Origin: Escherichia coli
GTDB taxonomy: Bacteria > Pseudomonadota > Gammaproteobacteria > Enterobacterales > Enterobacteriaceae
NCBI RefSeq assembly: GCF_044647545.1
Contig: NZ_CP172818.1
Length of the DNA stretch: 64,000 bases
Reading direction: 5' to 3' (one strand)
Within the stretch, counting starts at the first letter, position 1, and the number at the start of each line of letters is the position of its first letter. This document shows, piece by piece, positions 21,080-25,294 of the stretch. Both the position numbers and the translations under genes were made by a program. The notes below the pieces were generated by a model. It ran no database searches and had not been told where the DNA came from. It was given only the letters and a program-made list of their open reading frames with translations.

Positions 21080-21535
21080 TTACAAATCATCAAGGAAAGT
21101 TTTATCCAGTTGTTTGAAGGCGCGCTTAAGCGTGTCAGCTAATGCCTGGTAATCAGGCTTGCCTTCAACGGGTGCCAACACCTGTCCAGACTCCTGTAAT
21201 TTACCGCGAACTTCATAAAACCAGTTGAGGATAGCAGGGGGTAATGGCGTTACAGAACGCTTGCCCAGCCACCACAATCCCTGCATGGGTAAACTTAAAG
21301 CGAACAGCGCAGTGGCAACTGCCGGCCCAAGCTGACCGCCCAGGGCAATCTGCCAGCAGAGAGTAAATACGGCGATCGGCGGCATAAAACGGATCGCATA
21401 ACGCGTCATCTTGATAACGCGATTTTCGACAAAGACCGGGGCAAGGCGTTTTTCCAGCGGCCACGTCTTTGAGTAATGCTGTCCCCGGCGAAACAAGCTA
21501 AAAAAATTAACAGAACGATTATCCGGCGTTGACAT
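21080..21535 (-). CDS. yfbV: Inner-membrane protein, UPF0208 family
   Basis: 151-aa ORF with hydrophobic segments; synteny. Confidence 0.88.
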
Positions 21536-21537
21536 GC

Positions 21538-21553
21538 TTCACCTCAACTTCAC
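21538..21553. promoter_or_regulatory. TTCAC-N6-TTCAC direct repeat (cre-tag-like, CreB-type site)
   Basis: ttcacctcaacttcac immediately upstream of yfbV start, in the yfbV/ackA divergent region. Confidence 0.4.
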
Positions 21554-21872
21554 ATATAAAGATTCAAAAATTTGTGCAAATTCACAACTCAGCGGGACAA
21601 CGTTCAAAACATTTTGTCTTCCATACCCACTATCAGGTATCCTTTAGCAGCCTGAAGGCCTAAGTAGTACATATTCATTGAGTCGTCAAATTCATATACA
21701 TTATGCCATTGGCTGAAAATTACGCAAAATGGCATAGACTCAAGATATTTCTTCCATCATGCAAAAAAAATTTGCAGTGCATGATGTTAATCATAAATGT
21801 CGGTGTCATCATGCGCTACGCTCTATGGCTCCCTGACGTTTTTTTAGCCACGTATCAATTATAGGTACTTCC

Positions 21873-23075
21873 ATGTCGAGTAAGTTAGTACTGGTTCTGA
21901 ACTGCGGTAGTTCTTCACTGAAATTTGCAATCATCGATGCAGTAAATGGTGAAGAGTACCTTTCTGGTTTAGCCGAATGTTTCCACCTGCCCGAAGCACG
22001 TATCAAATGGAAAATGGACGGCAATAAACAGGAAGCGGCTTTAGGTGCAGGCGCCGCTCACAGCGAAGCGCTCAACTTTATCGTTAATACTATTCTGGCA
22101 CAAAAACCAGAACTGTCTGCGCAGTTGACTGCTATCGGTCACCGTATCGTACACGGCGGCGAAAAGTATACCAGCTCCGTAGTGATCGATGAGTCTGTTA
22201 TTCAGGGTATCAAAGATGCAGCTTCTTTTGCACCGCTGCACAACCCGGCTCACCTGATCGGTATCGAAGAAGCTCTGAAATCTTTCCCACAGCTGAAAGA
22301 CAAAAACGTTGCTGTATTTGACACCGCGTTCCACCAGACTATGCCGGAAGAGTCTTACCTCTACGCCCTGCCGTACAACCTGTACAAAGAGCACGGCATC
22401 CGTCGTTACGGCGCGCACGGCACCAGCCACTTCTATGTAACCCAGGAAGCGGCAAAAATGCTGAACAAACCGGTAGAAGAACTGAACATCATCACCTGCC
22501 ACCTGGGCAACGGTGGTTCCGTTTCTGCTATCCGCAACGGTAAATGCGTTGACACCTCTATGGGCCTGACCCCGCTGGAAGGTCTGGTCATGGGTACCCG
22601 TTCTGGTGATATCGATCCGGCGATCATCTTCCACCTGCACGACACCCTGGGCATGAGCGTTGACGCAATCAACAAACTGCTGACCAAAGAGTCTGGCCTG
22701 CTGGGTCTGACCGAAGTGACCAGCGACTGCCGCTATGTTGAAGACAACTACGCGACGAAAGAAGACGCGAAGCGCGCAATGGACGTTTACTGCCACCGCC
22801 TGGCGAAATACATCGGTGCCTACACTGCGCTGATGGATGGTCGTCTGGACGCTGTTGTATTCACCGGTGGTATCGGTGAAAATGCCGCGATGGTTCGTGA
22901 ACTGTCTCTGGGCAAACTGGGCGTGCTGGGCTTTGAAGTTGATCATGAACGCAACCTGGCTGCACGTTTCGGCAAATCTGGTTTCATCAACAAAGAAGGT
23001 ACCCGTCCTGCGGTGGTTATCCCAACCAACGAAGAACTGGTTATCGCGCAAGACGCGAGCCGCCTGACTGCCTGA
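21873..23075 (+). CDS. ackA: Acetate kinase
   Basis: 400 aa; N-terminal [14 protein letters not shown] motif. Confidence 0.96.
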
Positions 23076-23149: not shown

Positions 23150-25294
23150 GTGTCCCGTATTATTATGCTGATCCCTACCGGAACCAGCGTCGGTCTGACC
23201 AGCGTCAGCCTTGGCGTGATCCGTGCAATGGAACGCAAAGGCGTTCGTCTGAGCGTTTTCAAACCTATCGCTCAGCCGCGTACCGGTGGCGATGCGCCCG
23301 ATCAGACTACGACTATCGTGCGTGCGAACTCTTCCACCACGACGGCCGCTGAACCGCTGAAAATGAGCTACGTTGAAGGTCTGCTTTCCAGCAATCAGAA
23401 AGATGTGCTGATGGAAGAGATCGTCGCGAACTACCACGCTAACACCAAAGACGCTGAAGTCGTTCTGGTTGAAGGTCTGGTCCCGACACGTAAACACCAG
23501 TTTGCCCAGTCTCTGAACTACGAAATCGCTAAAACGCTGAATGCGGAAATCGTCTTCGTTATGTCTCAGGGCACTGATACTCCGGAACAGTTGAAAGAGC
23601 GTATCGAACTGACTCGCAACAGCTTCGGCGGTGCAAAAAACACCAATATTACCGGCGTTATCGTTAACAAACTGAACGCTCCGGTTGATGAGCAGGGTCG
23701 TACCCGTCCGGATCTGTCCGAGATTTTTGACGACTCCACCAAAGCAAAAGTGAACAACGTTGATCCGGCGAAGCTGCAAGAATCCAGCCCGCTGCCGGTT
23801 CTCGGCGCTGTGCCGTGGAGCTTTGACCTGATCGCGACTCGTGCGATCGATATGGCTCGCCACCTGAATGCGACCATCATCAACGAAGGCGACATCAATA
23901 CTCGCCGCGTTAAATCCGTCACTTTCTGCGCACGCAGCATTCCGCACATGCTGGAGCACTTCCGTGCCGGTTCTCTGCTGGTGACTTCCGCAGACCGCCC
24001 TGACGTGCTGGTTGCCGCTTGCCTGGCTGCCATGAACGGCGTAGAAATCGGTGCCCTGCTGCTGACTGGCGGCTACGAAATGGACGCGCGCATTTCTAAA
24101 CTGTGCGAACGTGCTTTCGCTACTGGCCTGCCGGTATTTATGGTGAACACCAACACCTGGCAGACCTCTCTGAGCCTGCAGAGCTTCAACCTGGAAGTTC
24201 CGGTTGACGATCATGAGCGTATCGAGAAAGTTCAGGAATACGTGGCTAACTACATCAACGCTGACTGGATCGATTCTCTGACTGCCACTTCTGAGCGCAG
24301 CCGTCGTCTGTCTCCGCCAGCGTTCCGTTATCAGCTGACTGAACTTGCGCGCAAAGCGGGCAAACGTATCGTTCTGCCGGAAGGTGACGAACCGCGTACC
24401 GTTAAAGCAGCCGCTATCTGTGCTGAACGTGGTATCGCAACTTGCGTACTGCTGGGTAATCCGGCAGAGATCAACCGTGTTGCAGCCTCTCAGGGTGTAG
24501 AACTGGGTGCAGGCATTGAAATCGTTGATCCAGAAGTGGTTCGCGAAAACTATGTTGGTCGTCTGGTCGAACTGCGTAAGAACAAAGGCATGACCGAAAC
24601 CGTTGCCCGCGAACAGCTGGAAGACAACGTGGTTCTCGGTACGCTGATGCTGGAACAAGATGAAGTTGATGGTCTGGTTTCCGGTGCTGTTCACACCACC
24701 GCAAACACCATCCGTCCGCCGCTGCAGCTGATCAAAACTGCACCGGGCAGTTCCCTGGTATCTTCCGTGTTCTTCATGCTGTTGCCGGAACAGGTTTACG
24801 TTTACGGTGACTGTGCGATCAACCCGGATCCGACTGCAGAACAGCTGGCAGAAATCGCGATTCAGTCCGCTGATTCCGCTGCGGCCTTCGGTATCGAACC
24901 GCGCGTTGCTATGCTCTCCTACTCCACCGGTACTTCTGGTGCTGGTAGCGACGTAGAAAAAGTTCGCGAAGCAACTCGTCTGGCGCAGGAAAAACGTCCT
25001 GACCTGATGATCGACGGTCCGCTGCAGTACGACGCTGCGGTAATGGCTGACGTTGCGAAATCCAAAGCGCCGAACTCTCCGGTTGCAGGTCGCGCTACCG
25101 TGTTCATCTTCCCGGATCTGAACACCGGTAACACCACCTACAAAGCGGTACAGCGTTCTGCCGATCTGATCTCCATCGGGCCGATGCTGCAGGGTATGCG
25201 CAAGCCGGTTAACGACCTGTCCCGTGGCGCACTGGTTGATGATATCGTCTACACCATCGCGCTGACTGCGATTCAGTCTGCACAGCAGCAGTAA
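23150..25294 (+). CDS. pta: Phosphate acetyltransferase
   Basis: 714-aa ORF from GTG start ([11 protein letters not shown]); C-terminal PTA domain. Confidence 0.96.

Follow-up and report, generated by a model that had tools for sequence, protein, structure and literature searches.

The direct repeat TTCAC-N6-TTCAC that abuts the yfbV start in the divergent yfbV/ackA spacer of the analyzed stretch of Escherichia coli DNA (64 kb; the window) corresponds to the published cre-tag of ackA-pta, an ordinary site whose assignment to CreB and ackA-pta is already in the literature and is not new. The reading preferred here, to which we give an even chance of being right, is that phosphorylated CreB uses this tag as a tandem-repeat operator, which would act on ackA as a weak distal site, if it acts at all. 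By its position and orientation it could not serve to activate yfbV, and in its exact form it is confined to the genus Escherichia.

Identification of the tag and its chance expectation

Direct reading of the letters gave TTCACCTCAACTTCAC, i.e., TTCAC ctcaac TTCAC, at positions 21538–21553 of the plus strand, separated by 2 nt from the yfbV ATG and by 319 nt from the ackA ATG (Table 1), so that the preliminary description, which had placed an exact repeat directly upstream of the yfbV start and about 320 bp from ackA, was accurate in both respects. The counterpart in strain MG1655 is located at NC_000913.3 2,413,135–2,413,150, and the spacer was recovered from 5424 of 5426 complete E. coli genomes.

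Table 1. Features of the yfbV/ackA region, in window coordinates
Feature	Position	Strand	Remarks
cre-tag TTCAC-N6-TTCAC	21538..21553	+	extended form from 21537; half-sites 21538–21542 and 21549–21553, 11 bp apart
yfbV Shine-Dalgarno GAGGTGA	21539..21545	-	3 nt before the yfbV ATG (GAGGT core 5 nt); overlaps the ATG-proximal half-site
yfbV coding sequence, 151 aa, DUF412/PF04217	21080..21535	-	ORF and domain match
yfbV 5'UTR as cloned in the literature	21536..21692	-	primer mapping; 5' end 21692; tag at about +140 to +155
Third co-oriented TTCAC	21581..21585	+	32 bp past the second half-site; derived in Escherichia
Candidate ackA long-leader promoter TTGTCT-18-TATCCT	21614..21650	+	literature 5' end 21650; hexamers in conserved blocks
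ackA, acetate kinase, first gene of ackA-pta, reported Cre-regulon target	21873..23075	+	
pta, phosphate acetyltransferase, second operon gene	23150..25294	+	

According to secondary sources, the cre/blr tag has the form TTCAC-N6-TTCAC and is bound by CreB in vitro. Several reviews that refer to RT-PCR name ackA-pta as activated by CreBC, and the accessible literature describes this dependence of ackA as modest. Both the recognition of the cre-tag motif and the mention of ackA-pta as a reported Cre-regulon member in the preliminary description were thereby borne out. For a comparison with the known CreB sites, the MG1655 regions of eight named regulon genes were taken. Each of the eight regions contained exactly one exact upstream tag, always in the sense orientation of the gene concerned and ackA included, which identifies the ackA tag as the site behind the published assignment; presumably, it is the one that is also listed in RegulonDB and EcoCyc. 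The gap between tag and ATG increased from 18 nt at malE, 22 nt at nudF (trgB), 46 nt at cbrA (yidS), 47 nt at cbrB (yieI), 61 nt at creD and 88 nt at yicR (radC) to 260 nt at talA and 319 nt at ackA. Half-sites extended to CTTCAC were common to the tags of ackA, creD, cbrA and cbrB, this extension having been derived here from the last three sites and not being a published criterion. The strong tags (creD, cbrA and cbrB) were located 46–61 nt from the ATG and were followed, after 10 or 22 nt, by a TAnnnT element, the 10-nt spacing being reminiscent of pho boxes, while the ackA tag had no TAnnnT at either distance and, with its gap of 319 nt, lacked a promoter-proximal placement.

The site was the single exact match to TTCACN6TTCAC on both strands of the window. 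Dinucleotide-preserving shuffling of the window gave an expectation of 0.12 matches, with at least one in 12 of 100 shuffles; the bare pattern is therefore real but statistically unremarkable and by itself compatible with chance. Extrapolation from 0.12 per 64 kb predicts about nine chance sites per E. coli genome, and one-mismatch tags were not enriched in the window (7 observed vs 4.3 expected). Such frequencies favor a reading in which the tag is a fortuitous match without a CreB-dependent role in vivo, that is, a yfbV translation-initiation region beside a conserved leader block which happens to be one of the nine or so chance tags, any effect of CreBC on ackA being indirect. Against it speaks the extended form CTTCAC-N5-CTTCAC (CTTCACctcaaCTTCAC, 21537–21553), whose 12 specified bases are shared with creD, cbrA and cbrB and which was expected only 0.02 times per window (found in 2 of 100 shuffles).

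Conservation of the spacer and of the tag

Conservation was analyzed in a set of 80 Enterobacteriaceae yfbV loci, 78 of which provided usable sequences (7 from Escherichia and 71 from other genera). The spacer had a length of 341–345 bp in 74 of the 78 and contained many conserved blocks, one of which, ACCTCAACTTCACATATAAA, was nearly invariant throughout the 78 sequences and supplies the ATG-distal half-site together with the Shine-Dalgarno core of yfbV. In the 71 non-Escherichia loci nothing else of the tag was conserved: the proximal half-site reads TTCAC only in Escherichia and xxTAC in the other genera, the exact tag was found in none of the 71, and its conservation thus does not extend to creB-carrying relatives. 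Salmonella possesses creB, yet its proximal half is CCTAC and its tag has three mismatches. Over the whole set, the tag was exact in 5 of 78 sequences, all from Escherichia, and had one mismatch in 11, two in 54 and three in 8. Within Escherichia, it was exact in E. albertii and E. whittamii and broken by single-base changes in two species-level lineages.

These results also fit a fortuitous match, since the tag is unconserved outside Escherichia and broken in some members of the genus, while the ancestral state already fitted 7–9 of the 10 specified bases. Moreover, the proximal half, GTGAA in the yfbV sense, overlaps the extended Shine-Dalgarno sequence GAGGTGA.

At the level of E. coli genomes, the exact 30-mer was present in 5305 of 5424, with one mismatch in 22 and with two in 97. 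In the latter group, as checked in the two genomes 14EC001 and cM2a, the proximal half is CTCAC for TTCAC (position 21538) and the flank is ATACAAA for ATATAAA (position 21557). The CTCAC variant of the tag was also observed in Escherichia sp. MOD1-EC7003. As far as these sequences indicate, the divergence within E. coli is too small for this retention to count as evidence that the tag itself is under selection.

Several further observations were made on the same alignment. A third TTCAC (21581–21585) follows the second half-site at a distance of 32 bp, or about three helical turns, in all seven Escherichia sequences, corresponding to position -69 from the ackA 5' end; at this place, nearly all other genera have ACAAC or CCACA, and Trabulsiella has CTCAC. 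Two Kluyvera loci (L064 and L070) carry ~125 bp of inserted sequence that contains inverted repeats (GTAGATGCGTAG...CATAGTCATCTATGC), located between the equivalents of window positions ~21657 and ~21690, the one stretch of the spacer with little conservation, and resembling a small repetitive or MITE-like element; all other spacers are 337–345 bp long. Finally, enterobacterial yfbV sequences with 94 and 90% identity were present under the names Microbispora bryophytorum (in a contig of 455 bp) and Chryseobacterium sp. 18061, respectively, most likely as a result of contamination or mislabelling.

Expression and binding evidence

Activation of CreBC by colicin M increased the expression of creD, cbrA, cbrB and cbrC 14–50-fold; of these, cbrC is located downstream of cbrB and is served by the tag of the latter. 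The genes ackA, pta, yfbV and talA were absent among those that the text and supplements of this work, as far as accessible, list as changed at least twofold by colicin M (LB medium, envelope stress). In a CreC-constitutive mutant, only six genes were upregulated more than 10-fold according to the Avison laboratory, which characterized the Cre regulon as "genes with poorly characterised functions." A literature search returned no genome-wide binding (ChIP) data for CreB and no paper connecting yfbV with CreB. The CreB protein itself contains the domains Response_reg and Trans_reg_C.

That ackA, pta and yfbV are missing from those colicin M lists despite the strong induction of the core regulon is again what a fortuitous match would predict. 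On the other hand, the orientation of the tag toward ackA agrees with that of every other regulon tag, CreBC-dependent expression of ackA has RT-PCR support according to the reviews citing it, and an additional, derived TTCAC is present nearby. The fortuitous match thus remains a strong rival, which we nevertheless regard as somewhat unlikely.

The tag within the yfbV leader

The E. coli yfbV and ackA "5'UTRs" were cloned into reporter plasmids by Miyakoshi et al. (PMC6393394). Primer MMO-0253 of that work maps to the minus strand and sets the yfbV 5' end at 21692, the primer beginning with AATTTGACGACTCAATG. In Salmonella, a yfbV start site was placed inside ackA (PMC6393394). The tag is located at or downstream of the yfbV start under every start-site scenario. 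On the yfbV-sense strand the surrounding sequence is TATATGTGAAGTTGAGGTGAAGCATG, and the ATG-proximal half-site overlaps the Shine-Dalgarno sequence GAGGTGA, a 7-nt match to the extended consensus, which is complementary to the anti-Shine-Dalgarno sequence at the 3' end of the 16S rRNA. The sequence GTTGAGGT was invariant in 80 of 80 Enterobacteriaceae loci and qualifies as the yfbV Shine-Dalgarno region; the GAGGT core was likewise invariant in all 80, and its extension to GAGGTGA occurred only in Escherichia.

An element that is placed inside the yfbV 5'UTR and over its Shine-Dalgarno sequence, and that is inverted relative to the gene, cannot, judging by this arrangement, serve as an activator site for yfbV. 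The earlier suggestion that the site may affect yfbV to the same degree as ackA is therefore only weakly supported: the immediate neighborhood to the yfbV start stands, while the tag is co-oriented with ackA and inverted with respect to yfbV. Hindrance of the roadblock type could at most be conceived.

If yfbV were the main target, CreB-P bound to the DNA of the leader and ribosome-binding site would form a roadblock to RNA polymerase arriving from the yfbV start sites, so that active CreBC lowers the expression of yfbV in a manner analogous to malE. The tag is indeed downstream of the literature 5' end at 21692 and only 2 nt from the yfbV ATG, a position comparable with the malE tag (18 nt from the ATG of a gene that the accessible literature reports as repressed) and with the talA tag, which likewise adjoins the start of a divergent gene, maeB, at a gap of 12 nt. 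However, yfbV is absent from the colicin M lists, so far as these are accessible, the orientation of the tag is opposite to that at malE, and a single response-regulator dimer usually makes a weak roadblock. Such a role for yfbV is accordingly held to be improbable.

RNA structure was rejected as the reason for the conservation of the tag region, the fold of the yfbV 5'UTR being not unusual (z = -1.77). The spacer contained no known Rfam family, its sole match being a chance snoRNA hit with E = 0.36. Locally, the yfbV mRNA (GUUGAgGUGaagCAUgUCAAC, 21527–21547, minus strand) can fold into a small hairpin that encloses both the AUG and the Shine-Dalgarno sequence. A proximal yfbV promoter, TTGCAC-N15-TATATG, was considered and found unsupported, its -10 element lacking the conserved final T.

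A relation of this region to small RNA control is known from Salmonella, where yfbV is repressed by SdhX, which base-pairs with the start-codon region of the mRNA, while E. coli yfbV is refractory to SdhX through G-2 and A6 of codon 2 (PMC6393394). G-2 directly adjoins the proximal half-site, and the Escherichia-specific run at this place is TGAAGC vs TAGGCC in Salmonella. The TGAAGC run has thereby completed the tag, lengthened the Shine-Dalgarno sequence from GAGGT to GAGGTGA and removed part of the SdhX pairing. It would be a bold step to conclude from this that Escherichia alone has rewired the spacer through substitutions at yfbV positions -2 to -7, moving the control of yfbV and ackA from a small RNA to CreBC and gaining the third TTCAC, and we consider such a transition doubtful.

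Position of the tag relative to the ackA promoters

Primer MMO-0081, used for the cloning of ackAeco, begins with GCCTGAAGGCC and sets the ackA 5' end at 21650 on the plus strand, and the tag is then centered at about -104.5. The sequence TTGTCT-18-TATCCT is a candidate for the promoter of this long ackA leader. Further downstream, two more candidate ackA promoters are available: CTGAAA-16-TAGACT, predicted from gSELEX, and a target of FNR ChIP with the palindrome ATGATGTTAATCAT. A start of ackA at ~21747, based on a RIL-seq fragment boundary and the gSELEX-predicted promoter and putting the tag at -201, was superseded by the literature 5' end at 21650, and the RIL-seq boundary was rejected as start-site evidence. 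A promoter scan gave no plus-strand match beside the tag and only a weak minus-strand match inside yfbV.

A promoter of its own just downstream of the tag and directed toward ackA, as at creD, cbrA and cbrB and with a leader of ~290 nt, is very improbable. The orientation does agree with that of the strong promoters, and creD has the flank TTCACATA as well, but no TAnnnT is present 10 or 22 nt past the tag, the sole candidate being TATAAA at a 1-nt gap, the plus-strand promoter scan is empty there, and the 5' end in the literature maps to 21650 and not to the neighborhood of 21580.

Other potential sites in the spacer were inspected in the same region. The sequence TTGTGCAAATTCACAA (21572–21587) was rejected both as a CRP site, its arm spacing being off the CRP consensus, and as an FNR site, its arms being unlike FNR half-sites; in either case, the TTCAC arm is not conserved. 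The palindrome ATGATGTTAATCAT, centered at 21787.5 in a highly conserved block (window 21781–21829), partly overlaps the reported FNR ChIP motif. If TACGCT at 21817–21822 functions as a -10 element, transcription would start near 21829 and the palindrome would be positioned at about -41.5, the place of the FNR site in class II promoters. A further regulator site may be represented by the conserved block GACAACGTTCAAAACATTTTGTC (21596–21618), whose ends, GACAA and TTGTC, are inverted copies of each other and which overlaps the -35 hexamer proposed for the long ackA leader. The literature 5' ends of ackA (21650, plus) and yfbV (21692, minus) imply that the divergent transcripts overlap in their first ~43 nt, and these ends are flanked by an inverted pair of extended -10-like elements, CATTATGCCA (21699–21708) and TGGCATAGAC (21730–21739).

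Proposed mechanism and significance

In the preferred reading of the tag as a weak distal operator of ackA, CreB would function as a response regulator of the OmpR/PhoB type with a winged helix, the phosphorylated form of which takes the tag. The spacing of one helical turn between the half-sites would allow a head-to-tail CreB dimer to occupy one face of the DNA. Binding of CreB is plausible, given the CTTCAC form and an identity of 17 out of 21 positions with the creD site, and as a near-copy of the creD operator this tandem site would probably be occupied by CreB-P when CreC is active. Being oriented toward ackA and placed far upstream of its 5' end, the tag could work as a weak distal activator site at most, if it is active at all, which fits the modest CreBC dependence reported for ackA. 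For yfbV, the wrong orientation and the location in the transcribed leader point to no activation and at most an impediment. The exact tag would be a recent state found only in Escherichia, in which the ancient block gives the ATG-distal half together with the Shine-Dalgarno core, and the ATG-proximal half arose through a small number of base changes that are specific to Escherichia and affect the ribosome-binding site of yfbV.

The discovery value of these results is small, because the site and the assignment of ackA-pta to CreB had already been published. What they add is the context of the ackA tag, which is limited to one lineage, has an atypical placement and was formed over another gene's ribosome-binding site. 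These features call for caution toward annotations in which ackA-pta is listed throughout the enterobacteria as directly controlled by CreB, and the 97 E. coli genomes with a broken tag (e.g., 14EC001 and cM2a) represent natural test material.

Comparison with known tandem operators

A close counterpart of the ackA tag is the reference CreB operator at the creC-creD junction of E. coli, with which it shares the exact repeat, the CTTCAC half-sites and the co-orientation with the target gene (creD aCTTCACcgtcaCTTCACata vs ackA gCTTCACctcaaCTTCACata; the two are identical at 17 of 21 positions). In contrast to the ackA tag, that of creD has a TAGTCT element resembling a -10 hexamer 22 nt downstream and is located 61 nt from the ATG. 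It is, according to the accessible literature, conserved across E. coli, Aeromonas and Pseudomonas, while the ackA tag is restricted to Escherichia and, unlike that of creD, overlaps the ribosome-binding site of another gene.

The cbrA and cbrB tags are also exact, have the extended CTTCAC half-sites and obey the same orientation rule as the ackA tag. They differ in being placed only 46–47 nt from the ATG and in having TAGTCT (cbrA) or TAAATT (cbrB) 10 nt after the tag, a pho-box-like arrangement with the tag in place of the -35 element, which is not the case at ackA. Different, too, is the response of the genes: cbrA and cbrB are upregulated 13–37-fold on CreBC activation and ackA is not.

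The talA tag resembles that of ackA in being exact, distant from its reported target (260 nt) and adjacent to the start of a divergent gene, with the maeB ATG at 12 nt, but it is without the extended C bases and is placed beside, not over, the maeB Shine-Dalgarno sequence AGGAA. In the MG1655 maeB/talA spacer (locus L084, 3391–3406), this tag lies upstream of the divergent maeB ATG in the same geometry as at ackA/yfbV, and it may be maeB and yfbV that feel the tags rather than talA and ackA. Proximity to a start codon is shared with malE, a CreBC-repressed member of the regulon according to the accessible literature, at which occlusion or a roadblock is a plausible mode; the malE tag is, however, co-oriented with malE, while the ackA tag is inverted vs yfbV.

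Beyond the Cre regulon, the two direct repeats with an 11-bp periodicity are alike in the PhoB pho box and other tandem sites of the OmpR family, where a head-to-tail dimer of a winged-helix Trans_reg_C regulator is bound. The pho boxes are distinguished from the ackA tag by their 7-bp repeats, an A/T spacer and a position 10 bp upstream of the -10 element, while from the ackA tag it is ~60 bp downstream to the nearest candidate for a -35 element.
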